Position numbers and translations under genes: made by a program
The notes under the pieces: generated by a model
Databases searched by the model: none
Told to the model about the DNA's origin: nothing
The model's input: the letters and a program-made list of their open reading frames with translations, nothing else
Shown here: positions 14,045-60,365 of the stretch, piece after piece
How the letters are laid out: each line of letters starts with the position of its first letter
Position numbering within the stretch: position 1 is the first letter of the stretch
Assembly: GCA_963841435.1 (NCBI GenBank)
Contig: CAWJCS010000003.1
Span: 480,001-544,000 of the forward strand
Reading direction: 5' to 3'
DNA: 64,000 bases
DNA from: an uncultured delta proteobacterium
GTDB lineage: Bacteria; Myxococcota_A; Polyangia; Polyangiales; Polyangiaceae

Positions 14045-14192
14045 GCGGCCGAGCGGTGTGTGCCGTGGGGCCTCGAGAGCCCCGACCCGGCGCAGGACGA
14101 CGCGCTGCGCCGCGTCTCATTCACGATCATGTTGCGTGCGCGGTGCGGCGTGCACGGGTACTCGGTGCAAACACCATGCGAGGTCTCTCACG

Positions 14193-17100
14193 ATGACCCG
14201 GCGGGGAAACGCATCGACGAGGGGCGCGCGCTTTCCGGCGGCGCTCGTCTGGCTCTTCGGGATTGTGCTCCCGGCGAGCCATGCTTGTTTCGCAGAACCG
14301 AGTACCCACGACACGCCACCGGTCGCAGAGGCCGGCTCAGGGGGAACTTCGGGGTCATCGCACGCTGGGTCGACGACCAGCGGCAGCGGGGGAAATCCCG
14401 GCACCAACCCTCCCCCGTTTTCGGACGGTGGCGAAGATTCGGGCCCACCGGGCCCGGGTGCAGGCGGCGAACCAGAGACGATTGGCTTTTCGTGCCACAA
14501 GCCGTCGGGGGAGCCGTTGCCTGCGCGCAAATCCGTCACGTCGAACGATGCACCTGCCACTCCAACGGATGAAACGATCACCGTCACGAAAGCGAGCCTG
14601 TTCGCCGAATTCCAAAACCTGACCTGCGGCACGGAGGGTTGTCACGGCGGTGGCAACGACCCGAACGCCCAGTCGCCCGACGCGTTCACGACGACCATCG
14701 CTTCGTTCGACGAGCGCCCCACGCTCGGCACCGACGCGCTCGAAAGGATCCTGTCGCCCGACCTCGATGTGGTGATGCCCCCAGGCTCGGAGGACGGCTC
14801 GAAGCGGGGACCGAACGATCGCTACCGGCGCTTCGGGGAGCGCTTGCTCGCATGGCAAGCGGCGGGCTTCCCGGATGCGTTCGAAGTCAGCGCCACCGGC
14901 GATCCGATCGACACCAACCTACCGACCGATCCATACGTTCTGGCGCCGCGGGTCGCCACCGCGCTCACGAACATCGGAAGTTGCGTCCCGAGTCAACCAA
15001 CCTCGCTGACGACGGCCGGCGACGAGATGCGGGCGAAGGATGCGCTGTTCGCGGCGGCGCGCACTATCGACGACCTACCGGATACGATCTTCGAGACCGA
15101 CCTCGTGAGCCTGGATTCGTCCGTGCTCGCTCGCCGAGGCGTGTGGAGCTACGCGCCCACCTATCCGCTGTTTTCGGACAACGCCGGCAAAATGCGCTAC
15201 GTCCGCGTGCCCGTCGGCGAGTCCATCCGCTACGACAGCGACCGGCGCGACTTCGTCATCCCCGACAACACGAGGTTCTACAAGACGTTCCTCAAATCGG
15301 TCACCGACAAGGCCGGCAACGTCGGCTATCGAAAAATGGAGACGCGGCTGATCGTCGTCCGGCAGGACGAGAAGCTTGCAGATGGCGGCTATCGCCAGCA
15401 CGCGCTCTTCGCCTCCTATGCCTGGGACAAAGACGAGCGCATGGCACGCCGCGTGACGGACCCGCTCAGGAATGGTCAGCCGTTTGCCGACCGCCTCTGC
15501 CCCTACGTCGTGGACGAACGGGTGACGCGCGACCCCGAAAAGAACCCCATCAGCCCACAGATCAGCGAGACGTGCACCTACATGACCCAGGCGGAGCTGG
15601 CGGATCCAGGCTCCGGACGGATCCGGCACTACGCCATTCCGGGCACGGATCGCTGCCAGCAGTGTCACATGGGCTCGAGCAGCCACTCCTTCATCCTCGG
15701 TTTCAACCCGTATCAGGTCGACCGCCGTCGCGACGGCGAGGGCGGCATCTACGAAACGCCGCACGACGACGAGCTGTCGCAGCTCTCCCGCCTCCTCGAC
15801 TACGGGGTGGTGTCGGGCATCGAGCCGGGCGAGGTGAAGCTCGAAGAGTCGCAAGGGTCGCGCACGCCCCGCAACGACTACGAGCTCAAGGCGCAGGGCT
15901 ACATGATGGGCAACTGCGCCTTCTGCCACATTCCGCACGGCTATCCGGTGGTGCAAAATCCGGTCTTGAAAGGCTTCGAGCTTTTCCCCAATCCAACCAC
16001 CGGCGGCATTTTCCAGTTCTCGCTCGAACGTTACTCACCCCGAGCCAAGGGCGGGGCGGAGCAGCTCGTTAAGATCCCGTACGTCTCGCCCGCCTTCGGT
16101 GACCTGAGCTTCGCCGATACCACGAATGTATCCGGTGCCACCGAAAAGACGTTCGAGCTCTCCGTCGCCCCCGTGATCGACGCGGACTCTTATCCCATCG
16201 ATTGGGATCCCGTCACTTTCCAGTTCACCCTCCTCGGACCCTGGCGAAGCTTGATCTGGCGGAACACCTACACGCCGTTCACCTACCAGGAAGACGGGGC
16301 CATTTACGTTCATATGCCGCGCAATGCGCCAGGCTTCGACTGTCGCGTGCAGCACATCATGGCCGAGTGGATGCTCAGCATCCCCACTCAGCCGAAGCCG
16401 CTCGGGCTTTTGACTCGCGACTACGACCAGCCAGTCGTCGAGGTCACAGAAGAAAACGCCGACGACTACAATTACAAGGCCGCGATCTACGACGCCGCGC
16501 GCCGCGTCAAGGAATACAACCAGGGGGTCACGGGGAACTGGTGCCCGAACGACGACGATATTCTCGACCCCAGAGTCGTTCTCACTCCGATCGATGCTGT
16601 CACCGGGAAGCCCAAAATCGTCTCGCCCCCGGACGAAGGCATCGGCGGGCCGCGCATCGTACCGGACTATCCGGACCCGGGCAGGCTCGCCGACAACGTT
16701 CCGGATCACGCCCACTGGGTCGTCACGGACATCACCGATCCCGCAGATCGCTGGACTCCTCGGCTGCCAACTTGGAGCAAGCTCATCGCCACCCGTGAGC
16801 AGGCCCCACCCGAGGCACTCGTGGGAGTGGTCGACGAGCTCCAGAAAGTGCACGCTTCCGACGAGTTCCGTGACTTCGCGCGTGAGCCGTTGCCCATGGG
16901 CCTTTGGCACGAAGACTGCCAGTCGCAACCGGAGGTCGCTGCCTTCCCGGAGGTGCGCGAGGTGTCTCTCGACGAGCAGGGCGGCGCGCTGCGGCGCTGG
17001 CTCAACGGCGGCGTGTTCGAAGAAGACGCCGGTGCGCCGGGGACGAAGAAAGTGCACTTCCAGAGCCGCGGGGAGGCGGTGTTCCGCGCGATCTGCCAGA

Positions 17101-18062
17101 ACTGCCACGGCAGGGAGGCCGACTCGCGGAGCCCCCTCGCTTCGACGATCCTCGAGATCACGGGCGGCAAGACCCGCGTTGCAAACTTCGTCGCTGGCCT
17201 CTTGGGCCCCAAGAGCGCGCCGGGAGCGTTCGCCCGGGAGGAGTTCCTGGTCGACCTCGGCGCAACGCCCGAGGACTGGCTCACGCGCTACGTCCTTTAC
17301 ATGGGCCTCGGCGGTACGACGGCGCAGATCCCGCAGGTGGTGCTCAACCTGGTCGCAACGAGCCCGTTTTACGGCAACGCCGTGATCGCTCCCGGCGGCG
17401 ACAATCCGAACATGCTCGGGTCCGCTCAGAAGCAGTGCGCCGCGGTCTTGTCGGCGCCGCGAGGGCTACCCGACCGGTCCCCGCCGGCGCCCTGGCTGCT
17501 TCAGGCGGAGTTCGCCAAAGGCACCGCGCACTACGAGCTTTGGGAATCCCTGTGCGGGCACGACAATCTTCCGGTCGTGCACGTCTTCGAACATGGGACA
17601 GACAAATTCAGTCCGTGGGTATCGGGCTACGCCAACATCTTTCGTGCCGTGGACGACACGGGCGGCTGGATCTACCCGACGGACTGGCCCGTGGGCAATC
17701 AGCGCGGCAGCGTCGATACGGGGATCAACGCCAACAACGTACTTCCCTGGTGCATCCATCCCACCTCCGACGCAGAGCTCGATCTTATCACGGCTTGGGC
17801 CGCGGACGTCGGGCTGAGCCCCTCGACGGTACCGCTCTGTCCCTCCACGTTGTTCGCACAGGCTGCCGGACTGCCCGTTTACCACCTTGCCCTGGACTAC
17901 AACGGTCCTCTCAAGGATGTGCCCTTCGGTAACCAGGACTACTCGCGGCGCTTCCTCCTGGCAGGCGCCATGAACGCGGGCAAGGCCGCGCTCGAGCACC
18001 TCAAGGGTCTGACCCGCGGTGAGCTCGAACCGGCGCTCCCCTACGACTTCTGTGTTCAGTGA
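14193..18062 (+). CDS. Large multiheme c-type cytochrome, probable lipoprotein, with an SO2930/HNE_0200-like central domain
   Basis: Possible lipobox SHAC; heme motifs CGTEGCH (CX4CH), CQQCH, CAFCH, CQNCH; PLFSDNAGKMRY..FYKTF..ETRLIV..YAWD signature. Confidence 0.7.
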   Translation: MTRRGNASTRGARFPAALVWLFGIVLPASHACFAEPSTHDTPPVAEAGSGGTSGSSHAGSTTSGSGGNPGTNPPPFSDGGEDSGPPGPGAGGEPETIGFSCHKPSGEPLPARKSVTSNDAPATPTDETITVTKASLFAEFQNLTCGTEGCHGGGNDPNAQSPDAFTTTIASFDERPTLGTDALERILSPDLDVVMPPGSEDGSKRGPNDRYRRFGERLLAWQAAGFPDAFEVSATGDPIDTNLPTDPYVLAPRVATALTNIGSCVPSQPTSLTTAGDEMRAKDALFAAARTIDDLPDTIFETDLVSLDSSVLARRGVWSYAPTYPLFSDNAGKMRYVRVPVGESIRYDSDRRDFVIPDNTRFYKTFLKSVTDKAGNVGYRKMETRLIVVRQDEKLADGGYRQHALFASYAWDKDERMARRVTDPLRNGQPFADRLCPYVVDERVTRDPEKNPISPQISETCTYMTQAELADPGSGRIRHYAIPGTDRCQQCHMGSSSHSFILGFNPYQVDRRRDGEGGIYETPHDDELSQLSRLLDYGVVSGIEPGEVKLEESQGSRTPRNDYELKAQGYMMGNCAFCHIPHGYPVVQNPVLKGFELFPNPTTGGIFQFSLERYSPRAKGGAEQLVKIPYVSPAFGDLSFADTTNVSGATEKTFELSVAPVIDADSYPIDWDPVTFQFTLLGPWRSLIWRNTYTPFTYQEDGAIYVHMPRNAPGFDCRVQHIMAEWMLSIPTQPKPLGLLTRDYDQPVVEVTEENADDYNYKAAIYDAARRVKEYNQGVTGNWCPNDDDILDPRVVLTPIDAVTGKPKIVSPPDEGIGGPRIVPDYPDPGRLADNVPDHAHWVVTDITDPADRWTPRLPTWSKLIATREQAPPEALVGVVDELQKVHASDEFRDFAREPLPMGLWHEDCQSQPEVAAFPEVREVSLDEQGGALRRWLNGGVFEEDAGAPGTKKVHFQSRGEAVFRAICQNCHGREADSRSPLASTILEITGGKTRVANFVAGLLGPKSAPGAFAREEFLVDLGATPEDWLTRYVLYMGLGGTTAQIPQVVLNLVATSPFYGNAVIAPGGDNPNMLGSAQKQCAAVLSAPRGLPDRSPPAPWLLQAEFAKGTAHYELWESLCGHDNLPVVHVFEHGTDKFSPWVSGYANIFRAVDDTGGWIYPTDWPVGNQRGSVDTGINANNVLPWCIHPTSDAELDLITAWAADVGLSPSTVPLCPSTLFAQAAGLPVYHLALDYNGPLKDVPFGNQDYSRRFLLAGAMNAGKAALEHLKGLTRGELEPALPYDFCVQ

Positions 18063-41924: not shown

Positions 41925-42066
41925 AGGCCGAAACAGAGTCCTTTCGCCACCTTGGCCGTCGCGTCGCGCGGACGTTCGTCCGCCGACACGAGGAGTGTCC
42001 GACTCTTCGATGATCGCGCCGAGCGCTCGGCACGTCGCGTTGAAGTGAGAAGCGCTTCGCGCCGCG

Positions 42067-42101
42067 AAAAAAAAGCGCGAGCGCAACGACGGCGCCCGCG
42101 C
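42067..42101 (-). terminator. Rho-independent terminator after the RRM gene
   Basis: gcgcgggcgc-cgtcgtt-gcgctcgcgc followed by T8 on the minus strand. Confidence 0.8.
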
Positions 42102-42134
42102 CTTCCTTTCGAATTGTGGATGCGAGGTCCCGGC

Positions 42135-42554
42135 TCAGAACCGGTCGCGACGCCCGCCACCTCGACGGCGGTCGCCGTCGTCGCCGCCACCGCCGCCGCC
42201 GCCGCCCCAGCCGCCGCCGCGGTCACCACCGCCGCCGCGTCCACCGAAGCGACGCGCACCGCCGCCGCCGCCGCCACCACGACTCGGCCGTGGTCCGCCA
42301 CCGCCGCCCGCCTGGCGCTCGCGCGCCTCGTTGACCACGATCTCGCGACCATCCAGCGAAGCGCCGTTCATCCCGTTGATCGCGCCCGAGCCCTCTTCCG
42401 GCGTCGAAAACTCGACGAAGCCGAAGCCGCGGGAACGCCCGCTCACGCGGTCGATCACCACGAGTGCCGAGGTCACGTTGCCGAACTTGCCAAACTCACT
42501 TCTCAGCGTGTCCTCGGTCGTCGAGTACGCCAGATTACCCACGTACAGTCTCAT
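42135..42554 (-). CDS. RRM RNA-binding protein with Gly-rich tail
   Basis: RNP2 LYVGNL, RNP1 RGFGFVEF, VNEA. Confidence 0.95.
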   Translation of the reverse strand: MRLYVGNLAYSTTEDTLRSEFGKFGNVTSALVVIDRVSGRSRGFGFVEFSTPEEGSGAINGMNGASLDGREIVVNEARERQAGGGGGPRPSRGGGGGGGARRFGGRGGGGDRGGGWGGGGGGGGDDGDRRRGGGRRDRF

Positions 42555-42873
42555 TTCGAACTCCAGATCCAGCAGCGTCTTCTACGGCCCTTGAACGAAC
42601 GCTCGACGCTCGACGCTCACTGCCGCGCCCACTCCAAGCAGGGGTCGCGCCACGCAGAACTAAACAGCATCGGTCTCATCAACGGACAAACTTTGCTAGA
42701 TCTGGCGAAGGGCGTTGCGAGAATAACACTGCCACCCTCCGCCGACCATGGGCACCCCCTTTTCGGTAAGGCCCCAGTATTTTCAGTCGGAGCGTCGGAG
42801 GTCGGCCCGCCGGCCTCCCCGAAACCAGCTGATTCAACAGGGAATTTCTACTTGTTTGGCTAGCCCCGGTACG

Positions 42874-43188
42874 ATGCATCCGATGTTCGGTCTGGCTGGA
42901 CGCCGGGTAGCCGAGGGCTTGGTGGCGCTCTTTGCGCTGCTCGGGTTCACCTTGGTTCCGCTCGGGCGAAAGACCGCGCTCGAGCACGCCCGGGAAATCT
43001 TCACGACACCGGCCGCGCTGAGCGCCTGGCACGAGCTCGGCGGCGCGGCAGCTCGCCTGCGCGACAAGCTACAGGGCGTGCTCATGCCGGCCATGGCACC
43101 CGAAAACGAGCCCGACCGCGCGGCGGGCACGGCACCGGAGCCCGAGCTCCCGCCGCTACCGCGCCACCATCACGAAAACTCCGAGTAG
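42874..43188 (+). CDS. Small hypothetical membrane-anchored protein
   Basis: TM LVALFALLGFTLVPLG followed by RKTALEH. Confidence 0.5.
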   Translation: MHPMFGLAGRRVAEGLVALFALLGFTLVPLGRKTALEHAREIFTTPAALSAWHELGGAAARLRDKLQGVLMPAMAPENEPDRAAGTAPEPELPPLPRHHHENSE

Positions 43189-43253
43189 CGTCGCGTCACG
43201 GCGAAGCACGGAGTCGCGTCGGCGCACGAGATCGAGCAACCCCCGGGCAGCGA

Positions 43254-43600
43254 TCAGCGCGCCGGACGCTCTTCGGCGGGGTGCTCGTTGTAGTAGGCGT
43301 CGAGGCTCTCCTTCGAGATGCGCACGGCCACGAGCCCATCGCCCGTGATGTGCGCCTGGCAACCGAGGCGCGAGCTCATCTGCACGTCGAACGCCTTGTC
43401 GAGAATGTCCTCCTCGTCCTCGCTTGCCTCACTCAGCAAATCAGCGCCCTCGTCGACGTAGACGTGGCACGTGGAGCACGCGCACACGCCACCGCAAGCG
43501 CTGCCCTCGGGCGCCCCGGCTTTTTGCGCGGCCTGGAGGATGGATGTGCCGACGGGCACCTCGACCTCGCGATCTTGAGGTAAAAACCGCACCTTGGGCA

Positions 43601-43601
<1 letters not shown>
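43254..43601 (-). CDS. fdx: ISC-type [2Fe-2S] ferredoxin
   Basis: CGGVCACSTCHV..SRLGCQ; isc context. Confidence 0.93.
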
Positions 43602-45525
<1,924 letters not shown>

Positions 45526-45526
<1 letters not shown>

Positions 45527-46044
45527 CAGCCCATCTCGTCTTCGGCGGCGTCCGCTTCGTCGAGGAAGCGCACGTGGTAGCGGAGCTCGCCGAGCAGCGC
45601 CTCGACACGAGCGAGATCGGGTGGATCCTCGGAAAACAGGCCCGCGATGGCTTCGACGACGGCGCGCCGCTGCTGGCGGACCGTCGCCGTGAGGGCGCGC
45701 ACCGCGGCCAGATCACCACGGCGCTTCGCTTCGCCGAGCGCTTCGCGCCGCTCGAGCACCTCCATGAGCAGCATGGGAGCGGCGGGCGCAGCGCCCACCT
45801 CGCCCGCGTGCTTTCCGTGACGCGCGAGCAGTGCCTCCGCTCGTCCGACCGGGTCGCGCAGCTTCCTGAACGCCTGGTTCACCTCGATGGCACGGCCGAG
45901 CGCCTGCCGCCGCTCGCCCGCGGGTCGGCCCGCGTAGCGATCCGGGTGGAGCGCGCGACTCAGCTCGAGGTGGCGACGCTCGAGCAGCGCGTCATCCAGC
46001 TCGAACACGGGCGCGAGCCCGAGAGTCTCGTACGGGTCGGTCAC
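45526..46044 (-). CDS. hscB: Fe-S assembly co-chaperone
   Basis: GTG 46044 overlaps the iscA stop; [22 protein letters not shown]. Confidence 0.9.
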
Positions 46045-46445
46045 CTGACGGTGAAGGAGTGGCCGCAGCCACAGCGCGACGCCTCTTGCGGGTTCTTGAA
46101 CTTGAAGCCCGAAAACACGAGGGTCTTTTCGAAATCCAGTGCCGACCCCGCGAGGTACACGAAGCTCTTCTTGTCGACGTAGAAGCGCACGCCGTCGGCA
46201 TCGATGACCAGGTCCCGCTCGCGGGGCGGATCGTCGGAAAACTCGATGACGTACGAGAAGCCCGAGCAGCCGCCACCCCGCACGCCGAGGCGGATCGCCG
46301 CGTCGGGTGTGCCGCGCTGGAGGAGGCGCCTCTTCGCGTACTCGACCGCCGCGTCCGTGATCATGACCGTCTTCTTGGTCAGTACGGGATCCGGCGGTGC
46401 CGCCTCTTTCGGCGGCGTGGCTCGTGAACCGGCGAGGTGCTCCAT
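46041..46445 (-). CDS. iscA: A-type Fe-S carrier
   Basis: GGGCSGFSY, CGCGHSF. Confidence 0.93.
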   Translation of the reverse strand: MEHLAGSRATPPKEAAPPDPVLTKKTVMITDAAVEYAKRRLLQRGTPDAAIRLGVRGGGCSGFSYVIEFSDDPPRERDLVIDADGVRFYVDKKSFVYLAGSALDFEKTLVFSGFKFKNPQEASRCGCGHSFTVR

Positions 46446-46450
46446 GGCTC

Positions 46451-46888
46451 CTACCCTGCGCGCTCCTCGCTCGTCGTCGCGACGGGCGGCTGGGAGAGCG
46501 CCTCACGCGCGGCGCGCTTCTTCTTGTAGTCCTCGATCGCGCTCTTGATGGCGTCTTCGGCGAGGACGGAGCAGTGGATCTTGACGGGCGGGAGGCTCAG
46601 CTCCTCGGCAATCTGGCTGTTGGCGATGGTGCCCGCCTCGTCGAGCGTCTTGCCCTTCAGCCATTCGGTGGCCAGCGACGACGACGCGATGGCGGAGCCG
46701 CAGCCGAAGGTCTTGAACTTGGCGTCCTTGATGACGCCGTCGTCGCCCACGCGGATCTGCAGCCGCATGACGTCGCCGCATGCCGGCGCACCGACGAGCC
46801 CAGTCCCGACGTCCGAGTCGCCCGTGTCGAGGGCGCCCACGTTCTTCGGGTTTTCGTAGTGCTCGATGACTTTTTCGCTGTAGGCCAT
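46451..46888 (-). CDS. iscU: Fe-S scaffold protein
   Basis: MAYSEKVIEHYENP, APACGDV, FGCGSAIASSS, LPPVKIHCS. Confidence 0.97.
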   Translation of the reverse strand: MAYSEKVIEHYENPKNVGALDTGDSDVGTGLVGAPACGDVMRLQIRVGDDGVIKDAKFKTFGCGSAIASSSLATEWLKGKTLDEAGTIANSQIAEELSLPPVKIHCSVLAEDAIKSAIEDYKKKRAAREALSQPPVATTSEERAG

Positions 46889-47038
46889 GACTCTTCTCTG
46901 CGGTTCTGCGGGCCTAGCCCGCCGTATGTGGGAAATCGTGGGGCAGCGCCCCACCTGAAACGAGCCCGCGGAACGCCGTGGCCCGATTCCGGGTCGCCGG
47001 ACATTCGCTGGAAATACCGTGCCTATTCACGACAAAAC

Positions 47039-48262
47039 CTAATGCGCAGCCCACTGAATACTCTTCAAATCGATGCCCTGCTGGTGCATCTCCCACAGGG
47101 GTGACATGTCACGAAGCTTCTTCACCTTGGCGACCACGAGGTCGGCGACGTAGTCGACCTCCTCCTCGGTATTGAAGCGCCCGAGACCGAAGCGGATCGA
47201 GGAGTGTGCGTCGGCCTCGTCGAGGCCCATCGAGCGCAGCACGTAGCTCGGCTCGAGACTCGCGCTCGTGCAGGCCGAGCCGCTCGAAACCGCAACGTCC
47301 TTGATGGCCATCATGAGGCCCTCGCCCTCGACGAACGCGAAGGAGATGTTGAGGTTGCCGGGCAGGCGACGCTCGAGGTCGCCGTTGACGATGACCTGAT
47401 CGAGCGACGCCGTGATGCGGGTGTAGAGACGATCGCGCAGGCGCTTGATGCTCTCGATCTCCTCCGCCCCCTCGCGCTCGAGGATCTCGCAGGCCTTGCC
47501 GAAGCCGACGATGCCGGGAACGTTGAGGGTGCCCGAGCGGTTGCCGCGCTCGTGCCCGCCGCCGTCCATCTGGGCACCGAGCCGGACGCGGGGCTTCGAG
47601 CGACGCACGTAAAGCGCGCCCACGCCCTTCGGTCCGTAGATCTTGTGCGCCGTGAGCGAGGCCAGATCGACGTTCATGCGCCGCACGTCGAACGGCGTCT
47701 TGCCGATGCCCTGCACGGCGTCGACGTGGAAGATCACGCCGCGCTTGCGGGTGATCTTGCCGAGCTCCTCGATGGGCTGGATGGTGCCGACCTCGTTGTT
47801 GGCGAGCATCACGCTCACGAGGATCGTCTTGTCCGTGATCGCCTTCTCCAGGTCGGCAGGGTCGACGACGCCGCTCGGACCGACCGGCAGATAGGTGACC
47901 TCGAAGCCTTCCTTTTCGAGGCGCTTGCAGGAGTCGAGCACGGCCTTGTGCTCGATGACGGTCGTGATGACGTGCTTGCCCTTCGTGCCGTAAAACTCGG
48001 CGACACCCTTGATCGCGAGGTTGTCGCTCTCGGTGGCGCCGGAGGTGAACACGATCTCCTTGCCGGACTCCGCGCCGATGAGGCGCGCGATGGCGTCGCG
48101 TGCGCCGTCGACGGCGGCCTCGGCGCGCCAGCCGAACGCATGGGTGCGGCTCGCGGCGTTGCCGAAATCCTCGGTAAAGTAGGGCAACATCGCCTCGAGC
48201 ACGCGCGGGTCGAGCGGCGTCGTGGCGTGATTGTCCATGTAGATGGGGAGCTTGAGCGACAT
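47039..48262 (-). CDS. iscS: Cysteine desulfurase
   Basis: [27 protein letters not shown]-terminal WAAH. Confidence 0.97.
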
Positions 48263-48272
48263 GGGGAAGGAC

Positions 48273-48812
48273 TCAGGTTAGGTGCACGGCGGTCACGAGC
48301 TCTGGTGCCTGCGGGCGCTCGGGATGGCGCTCGCAGGTCGGGCACGAGTGGACGGGCGCCTCCGGCTCACAGGCCGTGTTGCAGGCCGTGAGGTAGTCGA
48401 GGCTCGCTTCGAGCTCTAGCTCGAGCTCGCGCAGCGCCGAGAGCCTCAGACGCGTCTCTTCGAGCTGCTTGAGGTAGACGCCGCGAAGCTTTTGCGCGGC
48501 CTGGGGCGCCGAGCCCGAGCCTTCTTGCTCGCGCACGAGGCTCTGGATCTCGGAAAGTGAGAGACCGAGATTTTGGAGCTTCGCGATCCAGCGCACCCGG
48601 ACGAGCGCATCGTGCGTGAACAGGCGGTAGCGACCCTTCGAGCGCTCGTGAGCCTTCAGAAGCCCGAGCTCTTCGTAGAGGTGGATGGCCCGCACCGTCT
48701 TGTTTGCGGCCTTAGCGAGGTCACCCACCTGGAACAGATCGAGCTCGCGCTCGAGCTCTCCGGGGCGGGAGGGCTCCTCGATGTTGGCTAGAGGGAGATG
48801 GCGGGGCGGCAT
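48273..48812 (-). CDS. MerR-family regulator with C-terminal four-Cys cluster
   Basis: [33 protein letters not shown]; tail CNTAC-X8-CPTC. Confidence 0.9.
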
Positions 48813-48830
48813 TCCAGTGTGAGCAAACTC

Positions 48831-48877
48831 ACCCTTACGTATGGGTAAGGGTTAGTCCCCGCCGGACCCTCTGTCAA
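48831..48877 (-). promoter_or_regulatory. Sigma70-like promoter with overlapping palindromic operator for the merR-isc operon
   Basis: TTGACA (48877-48872)-N17-TAACCC; inverted repeat ACCCTTAC-N6-GTAAGGGT at 48831-48852. Confidence 0.7.
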
Positions 48878-48900
48878 CCGCCCTCGGGCCCGACGGGCGC

Positions 48901-49677
48901 CTACTTGGCGACGGGGGCGTCGTAGCGGCGCAGGCGCGCCTCGATGCGGCGCCGCCGATCGCGGGATTCGTCGAGCAGGACCTCGAGCTCGAGGTTCTTA
49001 TCGTGCCAAACGGCGGGACGCGCATCGGGCGGAGCCGCACCAAGCGGCGGCGCCCCGGCCTCTGAGTTGACCGAGCCACGCACGAGCCGCGAGATCCGCG
49101 GGACGCTCGCGAAGTAGCCGGAGCGCACGTCGTTACCGATCGCGACGCCGACGAGCTCCCCGGCATCGTTGAAGAGACCGGACCCGGATGCGCCGGGCGC
49201 AAGCCGCTCGGTGTGCACGAACCCCTCGTCGACCGTCTGGGGGTGAACGATCACGCCGCTCCACGGCACGGGCACGTGGGCCACCATGCGCGTCGTGCGC
49301 TCGGGGTCGAGCGGCGCTCGCGAGAGCTCGGCCGGAACGAGCCCCGTCGCGCTGAAAGCGGCGAGATCGGAGCCCGCATCGCGCCTGAGCACGTGGCCCG
49401 TGTCGCTGCGCGCACGAACACGGCCGCGATCGACGGTGGCATAGTGAACGATGCGGCCGGGCACGCAGTGGCTCGCCGTCACCGCGAGATCCGGGGAAAG
49501 CGCGACCGCACCACAGACGATGCCGCGCGGCCCTTCGATGGCGAGCGTGGATTCATCGCCAATCGCGGGACTTTCGGACGGGGAGGCGTGGCAGGCGACA
49601 GCGAGCGCAAGGGTACCGAGCACCCCGAGCCCACACGACCGCCCACCCCGCCGAGCGGGGACGAGGGAACCGAGCAC
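48901..49677 (-). CDS. Trypsin-like serine protease lipoprotein
   Basis: Lipobox AVAC; catalytic triad motifs TASHC, SDLA, PGASGSG. Confidence 0.75.
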   Translation of the reverse strand: MLGSLVPARRGGRSCGLGVLGTLALAVACHASPSESPAIGDESTLAIEGPRGIVCGAVALSPDLAVTASHCVPGRIVHYATVDRGRVRARSDTGHVLRRDAGSDLAAFSATGLVPAELSRAPLDPERTTRMVAHVPVPWSGVIVHPQTVDEGFVHTERLAPGASGSGLFNDAGELVGVAIGNDVRSGYFASVPRISRLVRGSVNSEAGAPPLGAAPPDARPAVWHDKNLELEVLLDESRDRRRRIEARLRRYDAPVAK

Positions 49678-49873
49678 GCCCCCTCTTGTGGGCGCGGCCC
49701 GCCCGTGATCACCCTGCCCGTGGCGGCGACACCGAGGGCCCCTGACGCACCTGGAGGGGCTCGCCGGGAGCCAAAACGCAAAGCTGAGCCAAAACGTACG
49801 GCCCCGGGGACATCACGAAAGAGAAGTCGATGCGAACCCCCAACCCAGCGTCGATCCGTGGGAACCATGTCGC

Positions 49874-50452
49874 GTGGTAACGGAATCGAACCCCTCGACC
49901 CGATCGGGAGCGGGGCCGACGGACGCCGCCCTGGTTCTGGCCGCGCGAGCAGGGGAAAGCTGGGCGCAGGAGGCGCTCTATCAGCGCTACGCCCGGATGG
50001 TGATTGGACTCTCGCAGCGGATCCTCGCGGGGCGGGACGACGCGGACGATCTCGCCCAGGACGCCTTCGTCTACGCCTTCACGCGCCTCGACACCTTGCA
50101 AAATCCGCAGGCTTTCCAGGCCTGGCTGCGCTCGATCGTGGCGCGCACGGCGAGCAAGCGGCTGCGGCGACAGCGCCTGCTCGTGCGGCTCGGCATCAAG
50201 CGAGCCGAGCCGATCGAGCCGGACACCGTGGTCGCTCCGACGGCACCAGCGGACGTCGCCGCCGAGCTCCGGAGCATCTACCGCGTGCTCGAGCGACTGC
50301 CGCCGGAGGAGCGGGTGGCGCTCGTGCTGCGTCGAGTGGAGGGGCTCGACCTCGCGGAGATTGCCGAGCACATGAAGCTCAGCCTCGCCACGGTCAAGCG
50401 GCGCATCGTGGCCGCCGAAGCGCGCCTCGAGCGGGCGAAGGTGCGCGGGTGA
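49874..50452 (+). CDS. ECF sigma factor
   Basis: DADDLAQDAF, FQAWLRSI, region 4 LAEIAEHMKLSLATVKRRI. Confidence 0.92.
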   Translation: MVTESNPSTRSGAGPTDAALVLAARAGESWAQEALYQRYARMVIGLSQRILAGRDDADDLAQDAFVYAFTRLDTLQNPQAFQAWLRSIVARTASKRLRRQRLLVRLGIKRAEPIEPDTVVAPTAPADVAAELRSIYRVLERLPPEERVALVLRRVEGLDLAEIAEHMKLSLATVKRRIVAAEARLERAKVRG

Positions 50453-50456
50453 ACCG

Positions 50457-51557
50457 ATGAGCACGCCTGCCCAACCCCCCACCCAGCCGTCGCTCGCGAG
50501 GCACGTGGCGGTCAACGTGAACCCGGCGCGCGTCGCGCGCGTGTGGGCGTCCGTGTCGGCAAGGCTCGAGCGCACACCGGCGCGCGGGCGGCGCGTGCTC
50601 GTCTGGACCCTCGTGGCGAGCGGCGCGGCGGCGGCGGCCCTGTGGTTCTCGCTCGGCCGATTCGGCGACACGGGGGCGCCTTCAGCCTGGCAACGCGCGG
50701 CCCTCGAAACGTCGAGCGACGCCATGGCGGTGAAGCTCGACGACGGCTCGCGGCTCGAGCTCGCCGCGCACACGCGGGTCAAGGTCACCGAGAACGAGCC
50801 CTCGGCCGTCGCGCTCGATCTCGAGCACGGGCGCGTCGATTGCGACATCACGCCGCGACCAGGACGGCAGTTCGCGGTCCGCGCGCAGGGCGTCGAGGTG
50901 CGCGTGACCGGCACCCGCTTCAGCGTCGAGATCGCGTCGACGGGCCGGGTCGAGGTCGAGGTGTCGCGCGGCTCCGTGGAGGTGTCGCGAGGCGCGGTGA
51001 AACGACGCCTCTCGGCGGGCGAGCGCTGGTCGATCGATCTCGAGCAACCGGGCGCCGAGAGCGAGCCGAGCCGAGAGCCCTCACCCGCCGCCGAGCCCGT
51101 CGCCCCCGAACCGACCGCGAGCACCGTCGAAACGGCCCGGCCGAGCCCCGCGCCATCGGCGGCAACGCGCGAGCCGGCCGCCGCGGGCGCGCGCGAGCTC
51201 TTCGACCTCGGCAACGCCGCGCGCCGCGCGGGCGACGCGGCCGGCGCGGCACGCGCCTACGAACAGCTGCTCGAGCACTATCCGCGTGACGGGCGAGCCG
51301 GGCTCGCGGCGTTCGAGCTCGGGCGACTGCGCATGGACCGGCTCGGCGATCTGCATGGCGCCATCCAAGCGCTGCAGCGCGCCGTGACGCTTGCCCCGGG
51401 CGCCGGCTTCCGCGAGGACGCCATGGCGCGCCTCGTCGACGCTTACGCGGCCGCTGGGGCGACCGAGCGCTGCCGCTCGGCCCAGAGCGCCTACCTCGCG
51501 AGCTATCCAGGGGGCGTCCACGCCAGTGCGGTCTCGCGCCGCTGCGGCGCTCGCTAG
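50457..51557 (+). CDS. FecR-domain anti-sigma factor with C-terminal TPR
   Basis: TM; LDDGSRLEL, VRVTGTRFSV, VEVSRGSV; TPR region AYEQLLEHYP..YLASYPGG. Confidence 0.85.
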   Translation: MSTPAQPPTQPSLARHVAVNVNPARVARVWASVSARLERTPARGRRVLVWTLVASGAAAAALWFSLGRFGDTGAPSAWQRAALETSSDAMAVKLDDGSRLELAAHTRVKVTENEPSAVALDLEHGRVDCDITPRPGRQFAVRAQGVEVRVTGTRFSVEIASTGRVEVEVSRGSVEVSRGAVKRRLSAGERWSIDLEQPGAESEPSREPSPAAEPVAPEPTASTVETARPSPAPSAATREPAAAGARELFDLGNAARRAGDAAGAARAYEQLLEHYPRDGRAGLAAFELGRLRMDRLGDLHGAIQALQRAVTLAPGAGFREDAMARLVDAYAAAGATERCRSAQSAYLASYPGGVHASAVSRRCGAR

Positions 51558-51626
51558 GACCGCGAGCGGTGCGGCCGGCGCGCCGTCCCTTGCCAACGCG
51601 CTCGACCCGGCGCACACCTCGCGTGC

Positions 51627-52640
51627 GTGAGGCTCGCCTACCGCATCACCGCCCTGCTCGCGGGCCTCGTCGCGTTCGCGGCGTGCCGCGACGCACGCGC
51701 GTGCGGCGAGGCGGGACGCCCCTGGGTGAGCGTCGCCTTTTCCGCGCCCGGCTGGCCCGAGGGCTTCGCGGAGCGTGTGCTCGGCGATCTGCGTGCCGGC
51801 CTGAAGAATCGCGGCATCGAGACCTGTGGCGACGCAGACCCCGCCGTCGGTGCGCCGATCGCCACGGTGCGCGTCACCTCGAGCAGCGGCAAGAGCGTCG
51901 TGGTCGCGGTGGAGATCCGCGACGCGTTGACCGAGAAGCGCGTGAGCCGCGACATCGACCTCGCGCGCGTGCCGGAGGACGGCCGGGCCTTCGCGGTGGC
52001 CATCGCCGTCGACGAGCTCGTCTGGGCGAGCTGGGCCGAGATCGCGCTCACCGGCCACCGGGAAAGGGCCCCCCGCGCGGCGCCGCCCGAGGTCGTGCGC
52101 GGCGTGGAGCGTGCCATGCCGCGGCGAGACACGCCCTCGCTACGCCTCGGCGCGCTGTTCGTCGCGAGCCGTTACGGGGGAGGCCAGCGCGAGCTCGGTG
52201 CCGACGCCAGCTTCGTTTTCCCGTTGCCCGCACGGCTCGGGCTCGGGGTCGCCCTCGGCCTCAGGCAGGGACGCGAGGTCGATGCGAGCCACGGGCGCGT
52301 GCAAGAGAGCGCGCTCGGGCTCGGCGCCGACCTGAGGTTTTTGCCGCTGCGCACGCAGCGGGTCGAGCTCGGGCTTTCGCTCGGGCCGCGCGCCTCTCTC
52401 GTTCGGTTCTCGGGTCGCGCCGATGCGGCGGCGCGCGGCTCCGAGCTCACGGGGCTCGTGCTCTTCGCTCGCGCGAAGGTCATCGCCGGTGTGCGCCTTT
52501 TAGGCCCGTTGTGGCTCGAGGCCGGCTTCGGCGCGGGCGCTCCCCTGCGCGCCCTCGAGGCGACGGACGCGGGGCAGGTCGTCTCCGGGGTTTCCGGCCT
52601 CGAGCTCACGGCGAGCGGCGGGCTGCTGGTGGATCTGTGA
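51627..52640 (+). CDS. Exported protein with C-terminal beta-barrel-like region
   Basis: Signal/lipobox-like FAAC; amphipathic beta-strands in the C-terminal half; operon position. Confidence 0.55.
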   Translation: MRLAYRITALLAGLVAFAACRDARACGEAGRPWVSVAFSAPGWPEGFAERVLGDLRAGLKNRGIETCGDADPAVGAPIATVRVTSSSGKSVVVAVEIRDALTEKRVSRDIDLARVPEDGRAFAVAIAVDELVWASWAEIALTGHRERAPRAAPPEVVRGVERAMPRRDTPSLRLGALFVASRYGGGQRELGADASFVFPLPARLGLGVALGLRQGREVDASHGRVQESALGLGADLRFLPLRTQRVELGLSLGPRASLVRFSGRADAAARGSELTGLVLFARAKVIAGVRLLGPLWLEAGFGAGAPLRALEATDAGQVVSGVSGLELTASGGLLVDL

Positions 52641-53863
52641 TGGTCTCGACAACCGCCGCCAGGAACCCCTTGCTCTCGCGTGCGCTCTTACTCGTGCTCG
52701 CCGTGATACCGGGGCTCGCCTGCGTCGAGCGCGGCGACGTCCTCACGCCCGAGCCGGCAGATTCGCAGAAACCGGGCGCCGTCGTCGCGGACGTGAGCGC
52801 GGGGCGGCAGCACACGCTCGCCGTTGCGGGCGGGAAGCTCTACGCCTGGGGCGAGAACGACAGTGGCAAGCTCGGCGTCGGCGATACCGACTGGCGCTAC
52901 GAGCCCGTGCCCGTCGACAGCCCTCGCACCTTCCGCGCTGTAGCGGCGGCCAACGAGCACAGCTGCGCCATCGACGACCTCTCGGACGTTTATTGCTTCG
53001 GCGAGGGCTCGCGCGGCCAGCTCGGACAGGGCGACCGCGAATCGAGCCTCGTGCCGCTCAAGGTGAGCCTACCGGCGCCCGCAGCGAGCATCTCCGCTCG
53101 TTTCAGCCACACCTGTGCGCTCCTCAAGGACGCGAGGCTCTACTGCTGGGGGCAAAACGACGAAGGCCAGCTCGGGCAAGGCGACCCCGGCGTCGGTGCC
53201 GACACGACGGCCGCCGACGGCCTGAGCCCGCTACCGGTCGGCGACGCCGAATGGCTCGACGTCGGCGCGGGCGACGGGCACACCTGTGCCGTTCGGCTCG
53301 ACGGCACCCTTCTCTGCTGGGGCCGCAACACGAGCCACGAGCTCGGGCCGGACGAAACGCGCGTCCAGGTGCGAAGCCCGGTCGAGGTCGACGCCGCGCG
53401 CGATTGGCTGCGAGCGATGCCAGGACAACAGTACACGTGCGCGCTCAAGCGCGACGCGTCGGTGTGGTGCTGGGGCGAGAACGTCGGTAGCGCGGGCGGC
53501 GACGGCTTCCCGCTCGGCATCGCCGCCGACCAGCTCGATCGACCCACGCGCGTCGGCACGCTCGATGCCGCGGATCTTTCGACCGAGGTGTTCCACACCT
53601 GCTCGGTCACGCACGCTTCCGATCTTTACTGCTGGGGGCGCGGCATCGAGGGCCAGCTCGGCACGGGCGACATCGAGCTCCGCCGCGAGCCGACGCTCGT
53701 CGCCACCGGCATCGCGAAGGTCACGACGTCATGGTTTACGACCTGCGTCCTCACCGTCGCCGGCAGGATCGGCTGCGCCGGCAAGAACGAGCACGGCGAG
53801 CTCGGCACGGGCGACATGATGCGGCAAAGCGTCTTCACCGAGCCGAGCTTTCCCTCGCCCTAG
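52640..53863 (+). CDS. RCC1/BLIP-II repeat lipoprotein
   Basis: ATG 52640 overlaps the upstream stop; lipobox GLAC; about 7 repeats of HTCA..CWGxN..GQLG. Confidence 0.88.
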   Translation: MVSTTAARNPLLSRALLLVLAVIPGLACVERGDVLTPEPADSQKPGAVVADVSAGRQHTLAVAGGKLYAWGENDSGKLGVGDTDWRYEPVPVDSPRTFRAVAAANEHSCAIDDLSDVYCFGEGSRGQLGQGDRESSLVPLKVSLPAPAASISARFSHTCALLKDARLYCWGQNDEGQLGQGDPGVGADTTAADGLSPLPVGDAEWLDVGAGDGHTCAVRLDGTLLCWGRNTSHELGPDETRVQVRSPVEVDAARDWLRAMPGQQYTCALKRDASVWCWGENVGSAGGDGFPLGIAADQLDRPTRVGTLDAADLSTEVFHTCSVTHASDLYCWGRGIEGQLGTGDIELRREPTLVATGIAKVTTSWFTTCVLTVAGRIGCAGKNEHGELGTGDMMRQSVFTEPSFPSP

Positions 53864-58942: not shown

Positions 58943-60365
58943 ATGTTTTCCACCACCAGCGCCGTCCAAACCGACCCGGCAGGCCCGCCGTCCGGGGATC
59001 GTCTGACGCCAACGAGCAGCGCCCCGCGCGTTCTGGTGACGGACGACGATCTGGAGACCTGCGAGCTCACGCAAGACCAGCTGTCGCGGCGGGGATACGA
59101 CATCTCGTGGCGCCTGACGGCCGAGGAAGCTCTCGCTGAGCTCGACCACGACTACGACGTGCTGCTCGCGGACATCCAGATGGAGGGCATGAGTGGGCTC
59201 GACCTCTGCCGGGCGGCGCTCGAGAAAAGACCCGATCTCTCCGTCGTCGTGATGACCGGCTTCGGCACCGTCGAGCACGCCGTTCAGGCGATGCGGGCCG
59301 GCGCGTACGACTTCGTGACGAAACCGTTTTCGATCGAGGCGCTGGGCATGGCCATCGATCGGGCCGTGCGCCATCGCGCCATGAGCCAGGAGCTCCGGCG
59401 CCTGCGGCGCTCGGTTCAACAACCTCGAGCTGCCGAACCTCGTGGGTCGCAGCTCGCCCATGCGATCGATGGTGAGTGTCATCGATCGGGTCGCCGAGAG
59501 CGACGCCACGGTGCTCGTGACCGGCGAGAGCGGGACGGGCAAGGAGCTCGTCGCTCGGGCGATCCACGAACGCAGTGGGCGGCTGGGGCCGTTCCTCCCG
59601 ATCAACTGCGCCGCGCTGCCCGAAACACTGCTCGAGAGCGAGCTTTTCGGACACGCCAAGGGCGCTTTCACCGATGCGCGCCAGCCGCGCAGCGGTCTGT
59701 TCGTCGAGGCCAATCGTGGCACGTTGTTCTTGGACGAGATCGGCGAGATGTCGCTAGGGATGCAGGCGAAAATTCTGCGGGCGCTCCAGGAGCGCACCGT
59801 GCGGCCGCTCGGCTCCGCTCAGGAAATCCACTGCGACACGCGCATCGTCGCCGCTACGAATCACGACCTCGAAAAAGCCGTTCAGGAAAAGACCTTCCGC
59901 GAGGATCTCTACTATCGCGTCAACGTCGTCCGCATCGACGTGCCCCCGCTCAGGGACCGCGCCAACGACGTGCTGCTCCTCGCGCAGCACTTCTTGACCC
60001 AGGCGGCCGCGCGCAGCGGAAAATCGGTGACGCGCCTCGGTCAGCTCGTGGCGGAGCGCCTCATCAACTACGACTGGCCAGGCAACGTGCGAGAGCTCGA
60101 AAACTGCCTCGAACGCGCCGTGGCGCTGGCGCGCTTCGACGAGATCACGCTGGAAGACTTGCCCAGCAAGATCCGCGAGCATCGCCCCACGGACCTCGGC
60201 TCGCTCGGTGACGACGCGGAGCACCTCTTGTCGATGGAAGAGGTCGAGGAACGCTACATTCGCAAGGTGCTGAACGCCGTCTCGGGCAACAAGACCGTGG
60301 CCGCGAAGATCCTCGGTCTCGATCGCCGCACGCTCTACCGACGCCTCGCGCGCACGGCGACCTGA
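58943..60365 (+). CDS. Sigma54-dependent response regulator (REC-AAA+-HTH, AtoC/ZraR-like); +1 frameshift near 59423
   Basis: [55 protein letters not shown]. Removing one C joins the two ORFs (..[12 protein letters not shown]..). Confidence 0.9.

Follow-up and report, generated by a model that had tools for sequence, protein, structure and literature searches.

Reviews of Fe–S cluster synthesis name essentially two types of dedicated regulator, IscR and SufR (PMC8593673). RisR joined these two in 2023. In cyanobacteria SufR is a DeoR-family protein, and the actinobacterial SufR scaffold is that of ArsR. The Cys-ligated Fe–S form of IscR represses isc, which provides feedback on cluster supply (PMC8593673). 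The isc operon of Myxococcus xanthus, as described in PMC9973013, contains no regulator gene and is repressed by RisR, a member of the Rrf2 family whose gene lies next to suf; holo-RisR acts from a site over −10/+1. The discussion of that study asks whether the M. xanthus ISC system is an isolated acquisition, and the 553 proteomes that it sampled include no Polyangia, as its supplement shows (PMC9973013). In the MerR family, SoxR shows that the loop is able to hold a [2Fe–2S] cluster, and the paradigm for the family is that effector binding alters the shape of the DNA and not the affinity for it (PMC11672702).

The window considered here is the whole 64-kb stretch of DNA that was analysed. 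Its minus strand carries a merR-family regulator gene of 179 aa (48273–48812; PF13411 at 6e-13, with PF00376 and PF09278), followed by iscS–iscU–iscA–hscB–hscA–fdx, and the Pfam and NCBIfam assignments confirm this single-strand gene order as it was given in a preliminary description of the locus. The 10-nt merR–iscS spacer reported there (48263–48272) was likewise recovered, between the merR stop codon (48273–48275) and the iscS ATG at 48262. The remaining genes, all on the minus strand, are iscS, a cysteine desulfurase (47039–48262; NF010611 at 670 bits, cut-off 548, with Pfam in agreement), the scaffold gene iscU (46451–46891; TIGR01999, 224.6 against 192.4), an iscA-type carrier gene (46041–46445; Pfam and NCBIfam), the co-chaperone gene hscB (45526–46044), which has a GTG start that overlaps the iscA stop, the Hsp70-type chaperone gene hscA (43601–45526; TIGR01991, 760 against 708.55), which overlaps hscB by 1 nt, and fdx, encoding an ISC-type [2Fe–2S] ferredoxin (43254–43601; Pfam and NCBIfam), which overlaps hscA by 1 nt. 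A consensus scan called no terminator near the operon, and the window has no tRNA at the operon end of the kind present in M. xanthus. An Rfam search of positions 42000–50000 returned nothing relevant; elsewhere there was one sub-threshold miRNA match (E = 0.27).

IscR is characterized by an Rrf2 winged helix and a 3-Cys(+His) cluster site. No Rrf2 domain was detected in the 94 ORFs scanned within the window, the regulator included, and the earlier remark that the locus lacks an Rrf2 gene thus holds for these 64 kb of the genome. The accompanying generalization, that IscR normally occupies the head of the operon, stands for Proteobacteria but not for M. xanthus (PMC9973013).

The locus was compared with the best 80 of 308 genome loci found, all from the class Polyangia and with 51–75% identity. 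In all 80 of these iscS follows directly after merR (median distance 8 nt, n = 78), and in 60 of the 80 the operon runs on to fdx, the other 20 ending with the contig or the locus. The peptidase gene upstream of merR in the window is found in none of the 80, which argues that the merR–isc module carries its own control region. On this comparison the isc operon invariably begins with merR, and the two form a conserved module. Together with the position of a palindrome at the operon promoter (see below) and a presumably shared transcription unit, its place directly upstream of iscS means that the regulator seemingly fills the job of E. coli IscR. The RisR motif (TkGAC-N7-GTCCw) occurs in none of the 80 loci, as searched in merR itself and in the sequence upstream of it; the window has a single match, within an ORF distant from isc (17893). 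Among metagenomic protein predictions, two (P0195 and P0218) read from a MerR part into an IscS-like part.

The regulator has the architecture of the MerR family, namely an N-terminal winged helix-turn-helix and a long coiled-coil dimerisation helix, and it scores above the Pfam cut-offs for PF13411 (49.2 against 21.6 bits), PF00376 (35 against 28.2) and PF09278 (31.5 against 25.4). An AlphaFold2 model (mean pLDDT 90.1) has the MerR fold, with the DNA-binding domain at residues 28–95 (48528–48731, minus strand; PF13411; helices 29–35, 40–48, 67–81 and 86–98) and the dimerisation helix at residues 102–147. The best fold matches in the PDB by Foldseek are CadR, NmlR, BmrR, SoxR, MerR and CueR, and the matches listed are MerR-family chains only. 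The regulator reaches none of the NCBIfam equivalog cut-offs: it scores 42.5 bits against 116.9 for SoxR (TIGR01950), from which its Cys spacing also differs, and 50.9–55.8 bits against cut-offs of 147–168 for the CueR, ZntR, CadR/PbrR and MerR models. A search of the ESM Atlas with the whole regulator returned only unnamed MerR clusters, mostly from Myxococcota, and a search with residues 134–179 in which MerR families were skipped gave only hypothetical proteins (scores 0.85–0.88) and no lead.

Because the operon encodes an Hsp70/J-protein pair, and MerR-family repressors of chaperone operons are known (the NCBIfam HspR models), a chaperone feedback can be envisaged. HspR needs DnaK as its co-repressor; by analogy, HscA/HscB would serve as co-repressor, the regulator would be released when IscU occupies the chaperones, and its cysteines would be structural only. 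A conserved R-H-L-P-L-A peptide, disordered in the model (pLDDT 55–60), precedes the DNA-binding domain and might be read in the same sense. However, the HspR model NF047375 matches with 24.6 bits against a cut-off of 105, over the helix-turn-helix only, and four invariant cysteines in the sensor loop are left unexplained, which makes this reading very improbable.

These cysteines are the only four in the protein, and they form the motif C144-x3-C148-x8-C157-x2-C160 (48333–48383, minus strand), in agreement with the tail noted in the preliminary description. In the model, which is confident, they occupy the last part of the dimerisation helix and what follows it, the metal-binding loop, and in alignments they coincide with the loops that carry the cysteines in E. 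coli SoxR, CueR and ZntR. All four are invariant in 21 close homologues (alignment A1) and in a second alignment, A2, the members of which were picked for carrying the motif; they are present in all 80 of the best 80 loci and are all aligned in 110 of the 128 distant representatives that cover the region. The 18 representatives without the full set look frame-shifted or truncated. As judged from these alignments, the four cysteines are practically the sole conserved residues across the wider family and its most conserved feature.

From the position of the loop we infer that it holds an Fe–S cluster. A C-x2/3-C...C-x2-C arrangement would suit a thiol switch, Zn(II) or Fe(II) equally well, and Zn(Cys)4 and rubredoxin-like sites are also classically of the form C-x2/3-C...C-P-x-C. 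The main rival to cluster sensing, in our view somewhat unlikely, therefore retains the same regulator and operator and gives the loop a single metal, Zn(II), Fe(II) or Cu(I), or a zinc-thiolate/disulfide redox switch, such that isc would answer iron, metal stress or oxidants directly and not the occupancy of Fe–S clusters. The nearest relatives in sequence and fold are the metal sensors MerR, CadR, PbrR-like proteins and CueR, and a variant of the motif, C-x2-C...C-x2-C, is found in 72 of the 105 motif-bearing distant representatives, thus in most of the more distant members, and in seven of the 80 loci. Zn(Cys)4 sites of Fur, PerR and similar regulators typically show this variant. The C148-x8-C157 spacing is also that of Cys117 and Cys126 in MerR (PMC9478572). 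Against a single metal, the four ligands would come from one chain, as in SoxR, and the dimerisation helix has no Cys at its start; the Cys of the MerR `THCEE' sequence falls opposite a Ser in the family profile, in a column that is unstable between alignments. A purely structural Zn, moreover, would leave unexplained both why the sensory loop is the conserved part of the family and why the linkage to isc is found in 80 of 80 loci.

Upstream of merR lies a 22-bp palindromic dyad, ACCCTTAC-N6-GTAAGGGT (48831–48852), a putative operator in which the 8 + 8 arms are perfectly symmetric. It is unique in the window when up to two mismatches are allowed, with 0.07 occurrences expected from shuffles. 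Related dyads, with the family consensus (A)ACCCTnACgCaTaCGTnAGGGT(T), precede merR in 77 of the 80 loci, and the three in which they are missing lack upstream sequence (74 nt or less); no further copies were found in 867,220 bases of related loci. The survey of Myxococcota isc operons for this merR–iscS arrangement and motif, which had been proposed as a check, thus bears out for Polyangia the claim that the operon has an operator of its own. Among 78 sequences the dyad carries a mean of 1.6 bits per position, compared with 0.14–0.17 in the flanks, and central positions that lie outside the search pattern are also conserved (for example, a C at position 14 in 78 of 78). The distance from the end of the dyad to the ATG has a median of 20 nt. 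We infer that the palindrome is the conserved operator of the regulator and is bound by its dimer.

The dyad would be transcribed if the upstream promoter described below is used, and its 8-bp stem (−18.4 kcal mol−1, z = −1.91) might then form an RNA hairpin in the 5′ leader that acts in stability or attenuation. In the 78 sequences, however, each arm position keeps one type of base pair and departures from it break the pair; only position 3/20 shows a change, from C to T, and it is one-sided (nine sequences). The symmetric position 6/17 is complementary in only ten of the 78, and no Rfam family matches. With no compensatory changes, and with the sequence conserved in the manner of an operator while the structure is not, this reading was rejected as extremely improbable.

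A TTGACA −35 hexamer (48872–48877, minus strand) is followed after 17 nt by a −10-like hexamer, TAACCC (48849–48854, minus strand), and the dyad consequently starts at the third base of TAACCC. The earlier description of a perfect repeat over −10/+1 of a TTGACA-N17 promoter, here termed P1, was correct as to the dyad, the −35 hexamer, the spacing and the overlap, but the −10 is poor: TAACCC matches TATAAT at two of six positions and lacks the final T, and for this reason a consensus promoter scan called none (0 in 42900–49100). In the relatives P1 is common. In 69 of the 78 sequences (88%) the 90 nt upstream of the dyad contain a TTGACA with at most one mismatch followed by N16–18-TA, compared with 47 of 4000 windows of 96 nt drawn at random from these loci (1.2%). 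The −10 hexamers of the relatives are of the form TAnnnn at a like spacing (for example, TATATC, TAAGTC and TACGTC), mostly without the final T, and their distance to the dyad ranges from −4 to +15 nt. The dyad thus covers −10/+1 of P1 in the window and about +5 to +28 in most relatives, and this placement, at or just downstream of −10/+1, supports a repressor position as opposed to the 19–20 bp spacer in which classical MerR activators bind.

The region directly 3′ of the dyad suggests that a second, MerR-type promoter, P2, is possible. The hexamer nAnnnT occupies dyad positions 23–28 in 44 of the 78 sequences (TAnnnT in 28), compared with 0–17 at other offsets from 24 to 51, and in E. coli PcopA (TTGACC-N19-TAACCT) and PsoxS (TTTACC-N19-TATACT) the −10 lies at the same offset from the dyad. 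The regulator could accordingly be a classical MerR switch or dual regulator that remains bound at the dyad, keeps P1 blocked and, once activated, untwists P2, the −35 of which would overlap dyad bases 1–3 and be separated by a 19-bp spacer from a −10 at positions 23–28. The geometry would be identical to that of PcopA and PsoxS; the conservation at positions 23–28 is not mirrored to the left of the dyad and is therefore directional; and the dyad, the hexamer and the start codon keep a fixed spacing while the position of P1 shifts against them. The hypothetical −35 (positions −2 to 3), however, is poor, with one to three of six matches to TTGACA in 72 of the 78 sequences and four in the other six, and TTG stands directly 5′ of the dyad in none of the 78. 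In the window the hexamer itself is GAGTTT (48825–48830, minus strand), transcription starting about 7 nt past it would give a leader of only about 6–8 nt, and a near-consensus P1 kept in 88% would be purposeless if it were always blocked. Such a switch is unlikely on balance. Its hexamer at the canonical MerR offset nevertheless qualifies the earlier inference of a repressor: the operator is at a repressor position, but repression as the sole mode of action does not follow.

The explanation favoured here, held with about as much belief as doubt, is that in the class Polyangia merR encodes a dedicated, autoregulated repressor of merR-iscSUA-hscBA-fdx that senses Fe–S status through a Cys4 loop placed as in SoxR. 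A dimer of the regulator would bind the palindrome and, given the placement of the dyad relative to P1, would block RNA polymerase, thereby repressing the whole operon including the regulator gene. The four cysteines would ligate an Fe–S cluster supplied by ISC, in the loop that follows the dimerisation helix and is the place of the [2Fe–2S] cluster in SoxR and of the metals in CueR, ZntR and MerR. The cluster-loaded regulator would be the high-affinity repressor form, and under cluster shortage (iron limitation, oxidants or high demand) the cluster-free regulator would leave the DNA and the operon would be derepressed. The holo form was chosen as the repressor because only that polarity gives stable negative feedback. 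The logic would be that of IscR, SufR and RisR on the non-homologous scaffold of MerR. Since the MerR paradigm is a change of DNA shape, a pure on/off repressor would depart from it for this subfamily. A broader reading, towards which we lean slightly less than away from it, is that these regulators form a second, independently evolved Fe–S-binding lineage of the MerR family with a Cys4 spacing unrelated to that of SoxR, that they are affinity-switch repressors in which activation by DNA untwisting has been given up, and that they place an IscR-like loop on ISC throughout Polyangia.

A search of the literature available in full text found no description of a MerR-family regulator of an isc operon, and the four-Cys MerR regulator of isc is apparently undescribed. 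If the broader reading is true, sensors of Fe–S homeostasis have been invented on at least one further scaffold, in addition to Rrf2 and to the DeoR-type SufR found in cyanobacteria. A regulator built on the MerR scaffold and standing at the head of isc throughout a whole class would add one more independent answer to the matching of synthesis with demand. Within the MerR family it would be only the second candidate for an Fe–S sensor, and it would show a MerR of the metal-sensor type working from a repressor position. With a small protein and an operator known base by base, the model lends itself to direct testing. The finding also touches the question of whether the M. xanthus ISC system is an isolated acquisition, as complete isc operons are common in Polyangia (60 of the best 80 of 308 loci reach fdx).

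Among known regulators, the metal sensors MerR, CadR, PbrR, ZntR and CueR are the closest by sequence and fold and carry cysteines in the same loop, and the CueR site, like the 22-bp dyad, begins with ACC and ends with GGT. They differ in that a trans Cys (Ser in CueR) stands at the start of their dimerisation helix, where the regulator has none, in that their operators lie inside a 19–20 bp spacer, whereas the dyad lies downstream of a promoter with a 17-bp spacer, and in that their targets are efflux or detoxification genes and not a biosynthetic operon. MliR is a MerR-family protein that is also tied to iron homeostasis, but it is without an effector-binding domain, cysteines or a link to isc. 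SoxR shares the MerR fold and has its four cysteine ligands supplied by a single chain, in the loop that follows the dimerisation helix (PMC11672702), but its motif is C-x2-C-x-C-x5-C as opposed to C-x2/3-C-x8-C-x2-C, and it activates soxS from inside a 19-bp spacer without linkage to isc. RisR (Rrf2 subgroup IS6) comes from the same phylum as the window and controls iscSUA-hscBA-fdx, also from a site over −10/+1, but its gene lies beside suf and does not head isc (PMC9973013). IscR of E. coli and other Proteobacteria is, like merR, the product of the first gene of isc and autoregulated, as the regulator would be; the two belong to unrelated folds and families, with different ligand motifs, operators and taxa, and would share Fe–S binding if the cofactor proposed here is correct.

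Seven genes lie head to tail on the minus strand in the order merR-iscS-iscU-iscA-hscB-hscA-fdx, and the assignments of the preliminary description are borne out by Pfam and NCBIfam matches. The first gene encodes a 179-residue MerR-family regulator (48273–48812; PF13411, PF00376 and PF09278) and is followed by iscS (47039–48262; NF010611, 670 bits against a cut-off of 548), iscU (46451–46891; TIGR01999, 224.6 bits against 192.4), an iscA-type carrier gene (46041–46445), hscB (45526–46044, with a GTG start that overlaps the iscA stop), hscA (43601–45526; TIGR01991, 760 bits against 708.55) and the gene for an ISC-type ferredoxin, fdx (43254–43601), with one-base overlaps between hscB and hscA and between hscA and fdx. 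The gap of 10 nt between merR and iscS and the lack of an Rrf2 gene in the window (no Rrf2 domain in the 94 ORFs scanned) are likewise as first reported. A recognizable Shine–Dalgarno sequence at the usual distance is absent before both merR (48813–48830) and iscS (48263–48272). The RNA-binding protein encoded about 700 nt downstream of fdx (42135–42554, minus strand) is of the RRM type and has a tail rich in Gly and Arg.

A search of a 90%-clustered protein set produced 956 relatives of the regulator at E ≤ 1e-3; among the 120 matches listed, identity is at least 64%, and those that carry a name are called 'MerR family (copper efflux) regulator' and nothing else, their taxa being Polyangiaceae or Myxococcota. 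A genome scan identified 308 loci encoding a relative, the best 80 of which were retrieved; all 80 are metagenome-assembled genomes labelled Polyangiaceae, Polyangiales, Sorangium, Myxococcales or, mistakenly, 'Pseudomonadota'. In every one of these 80, iscS directly follows merR, and the order continues through iscU, iscA, hscB and hscA to fdx in 60, the remaining 20 reaching a contig or locus edge. The median merR–iscS gap is 8 nt (n = 78; a value of −415 in locus L065 comes from an extended ORF and is artefactual). In two metagenomic protein predictions, P0195 (591 residues) and P0218 (191 residues), the MerR part runs into an IscS-like part, which is probably a read-through or frameshift artefact of this tight junction. 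The upstream neighbour in the window, a trypsin-like peptidase gene (48901–49677), is found in none of the 80 loci, and the conserved unit therefore starts at merR and its control region. Divergent from the peptidase gene, the plus strand encodes an ECF sigma factor (49874–50452), a FecR-domain/TPR protein (50457–51557) and an RCC1-repeat protein (51569–53863). Farther along this strand (58943–60365), a receiver domain (ORF 58943–60211) and a sigma-54 AAA+/HTH_8 part (ORF 59442–60365) overlap in different frames, an arrangement explained either by a frameshift in an NtrC-type gene or by an error in sequencing.

The candidate operator in the window is a perfect dyad, ACCCTTAC-N6-GTAAGGGT (48852–48831, minus strand), with the merR ATG 18 nt beyond it; no other site in the window matches it with two or fewer mismatches (0.07 expected). 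The survey of related isc operons proposed in the preliminary description recovered ACCCTnAC-N6-GTnAGGGT (at most three mismatches) upstream of merR in 77 of the 80 loci; the three others (L022, L053 and L071) have at most 74 nt of upstream sequence. With this comparison the original observation is confirmed, and at the level of sequence it is much stronger. Across 78 distinct sequences including the window, information averages 1.6 bits over the 22 dyad positions, compared with 0.14–0.17 bits in the flanks. The arm positions were given in the search pattern and hence selected, but the six central positions were not, and these are conserved too (C at position 10 in 73/78 and at position 14 in 78/78), so that the full site is a 22-bp palindrome with hardly any interruption, (A)ACCCTnACgCaTaCGTnAGGGT(T). 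Positions 6 and 17 are free to vary and are complementary in just ten of the 78, and each arm position holds a single pair type, with no compensatory exchange. This pattern has the signature of a protein–DNA site and not of an RNA hairpin; the hairpin reading was rejected for the lack of compensatory exchange, although the transcript could nonetheless fold (z = −1.91). No Rfam family matches the dyad region, and no further copies at up to one mismatch were found in the 867,220 bases of the loci.

The claim that the repeat overlaps a TTGACA-N17 promoter also holds in the window, where TTGACA (48877–48872) and TAACCC (48854–48849) are separated by 17 nt on the minus strand; the second hexamer is weak, and a consensus scan finds no promoter here. 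In 69 of the 78 sequences, the 90 nt preceding the dyad contain TTGACA (at most one mismatch)-N16–18-TA, mostly as exact TTGACA-N17, against a background of 47 in 4000 random 96-nt windows from the same loci. The distance from the end of the −10 hexamer to the first dyad base lies between −4 (the window) and +15 and is most often 12–14. Assuming a start about 7 nt past the −10 hexamer, the dyad would span about +5 to +28 in most relatives and about −10 to +12 in the window. In E. coli PcopA (TTGACC-N19-TAACCT) and PsoxS (TTTACC-N19-TATACT), read directly, the dyad instead begins at the ACC of the −35 element and the −10 element begins at dyad position 23. The variable spacing and 17-bp spacer fit a presumptive polymerase-blocking site and not the classical MerR arrangement. 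A subgroup of loci (L006, L009–L012 and L016) is without the upstream TTGACA-N17-TA promoter; here TTGCGT (TTGCAG in L010 and TTGCAT in L016) ends one base before the dyad, and in the five with T at dyad position 17 (L009–L012 and L016) the spacing from this hexamer to TAGGGT in the right arm is 17 bp. Operator and core promoter would here occupy overlapping sequence.

A serious rival is a dual mechanism in which the protein acts as a repressor on the upstream promoter (P1) and as an activator on a second, MerR-type promoter (P2). It is retained because a directional −10-like hexamer lies 3′ of the dyad at the offset used by canonical MerR promoters such as PcopA and PsoxS: nAnnnT occurs at positions 23–28 in 44 of the 78 sequences (TAnnnT in 28), compared with 0–17 at other offsets from 24 to 51, and the conserved (T/G)AGnnT has no mirror left of the dyad. 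The window carries GAGTTT (48830–48825). However, TTG is found directly 5′ of the dyad in none of the 78 sequences, and the would-be −35 element is poor, agreeing with TTGACA at one to three of six bases in 72 and at four in six. The hexamer abutting the dyad may mark a vestigial or working promoter, and the family may keep, or descend from, a P2 beside the strong upstream P1.

The regulator contains exactly four cysteines, in the C-X3-C-X8-C-X2-C arrangement reported earlier (Cys144, Cys148, Cys157 and Cys160). It matches generic MerR models alone and falls far under the cut-offs of the NCBIfam MerR, ZntR, CadR-PbrR, CueR, SoxR and HspR models. The four cysteines, His155, His163 and a C-terminal P-E-L-V motif are invariant in 21 close homologues. 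All 80 loci keep the four cysteines, the first pair being C-x3-C in 73 and C-x2-C in seven (L067–L069 and L076–L079), which are likewise isc-linked and dyad-bearing. Searched exhaustively, the 50%-identity representatives yielded 7989 matches within E ≤ 1e-3, of which 416 passed E ≤ 1e-10 and 45 passed E ≤ 1e-30. Among the 150 that were listed, which extend to 34% identity, the cysteine region is covered by 128 and all four cysteines are aligned in 110 of these, the 18 exceptions resembling frame-shifted, truncated or fused predictions. The first pair among the listed representatives is C-x2-C in 72 and C-x3-C in 31, and the named relatives of one distant C-x2-C member are from Polyangia and Nannocystaceae. 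In an alignment of 85 members picked for carrying the motif, Leu86 is the sole other invariant column.

A confident AlphaFold2 model (mean pLDDT 90.1; 87–89 over the C-terminal 40 residues) has the MerR fold, with a winged HTH, a long helix (102–147) and short helices (154–159 and 171–177); Cys144 belongs to the final turn of the long helix, and the loop after this helix holds the remaining three cysteines. The PDB matches listed by fold and by sequence are all MerR-family proteins, led by CadR, MerR, a PbrR-like protein and CueR, with SoxR also found. The four cysteines align with the segment that provides E. coli SoxR with its four cluster ligands and CueR and ZntR with their metal ligands. 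The regulator has no cysteine at the start of the dimerization helix, which makes this a single-chain site like that of SoxR. Residues 1–25 (48740–48812) are modelled as a disordered N-terminal extension (pLDDT 55–60), in which an R-H-L-P-L-A peptide is conserved among close homologues and which might serve as a tag recognized by a chaperone or a protease.

Comparison of the loci shows that three elements are fixed to the isc operon: a regulator gene and an operator, both dedicated to it, and the invariant Cys4 loop. In the proposed mechanism, a regulator dimer would bind the palindrome and block the upstream promoter, repressing merR and isc jointly, and the Cys4 loop would take an Fe–S cluster from the operon-encoded machinery, the loaded form binding tightly. 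This polarity is proposed because it alone allows autoregulation to be homeostatic; with the reverse polarity, positive feedback would run away. That a dedicated regulator acts through the dyad is highly probable, and its net effect on isc is probably repression; an Fe–S cluster as the ligand of the Cys4 loop is slightly favoured, and the whole chain from dimer binding to a tightly binding loaded form has an even chance of being correct. The Fe–S-sensing repressor in place of IscR first proposed is partly supported: the regulator and operator are dedicated to isc and repression is probable, while the Fe–S cofactor is one that we infer.

In Myxococcus xanthus, the isc operon is described as iscSUA-hscBA-fdx-tRNA-Leu with no regulator gene inside; RisR, an Rrf2 protein encoded upstream of suf, holds an Fe–S cluster, and holo-RisR represses isc and suf through TkGAC-N7-GTCCw sites over −10/+1 (PMC9973013). 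In contrast to that operon, which ends in a tRNA gene, the window contains no tRNA, and the RisR motif is found in none of the 80 merR regions. Its one match in the window (17893–17909, plus strand), inside a 1334-residue ORF with no Pfam match (14058–18062), is most likely due to chance. The RisR study surveyed 553 proteomes, among which its supplementary tables show no Polyangia (PMC9973013), so that it could not have met the merR-isc arrangement. A review of Fe–S assembly gives IscR and SufR as the dedicated regulators, and a term search of it finds no mention of MerR (PMC8593673); a 2024 review of metal sensing gives SoxR as the Fe–S-bearing MerR protein and MliR as the iron-linked one (PMC11672702); MliR is described as having neither effector domain nor cysteines (PMC9478572). 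The literature check suggested earlier, made in open-access full text, turned up no account of a MerR-type regulator of isc. The feedback logic proposed here is that of holo-IscR, holo-SufR and holo-RisR (PMC8593673; PMC9973013); what would be new, and is partly supported, is such control of Fe–S biogenesis by a cysteine-rich sensor built on a MerR scaffold and acting from a non-canonical operator position.
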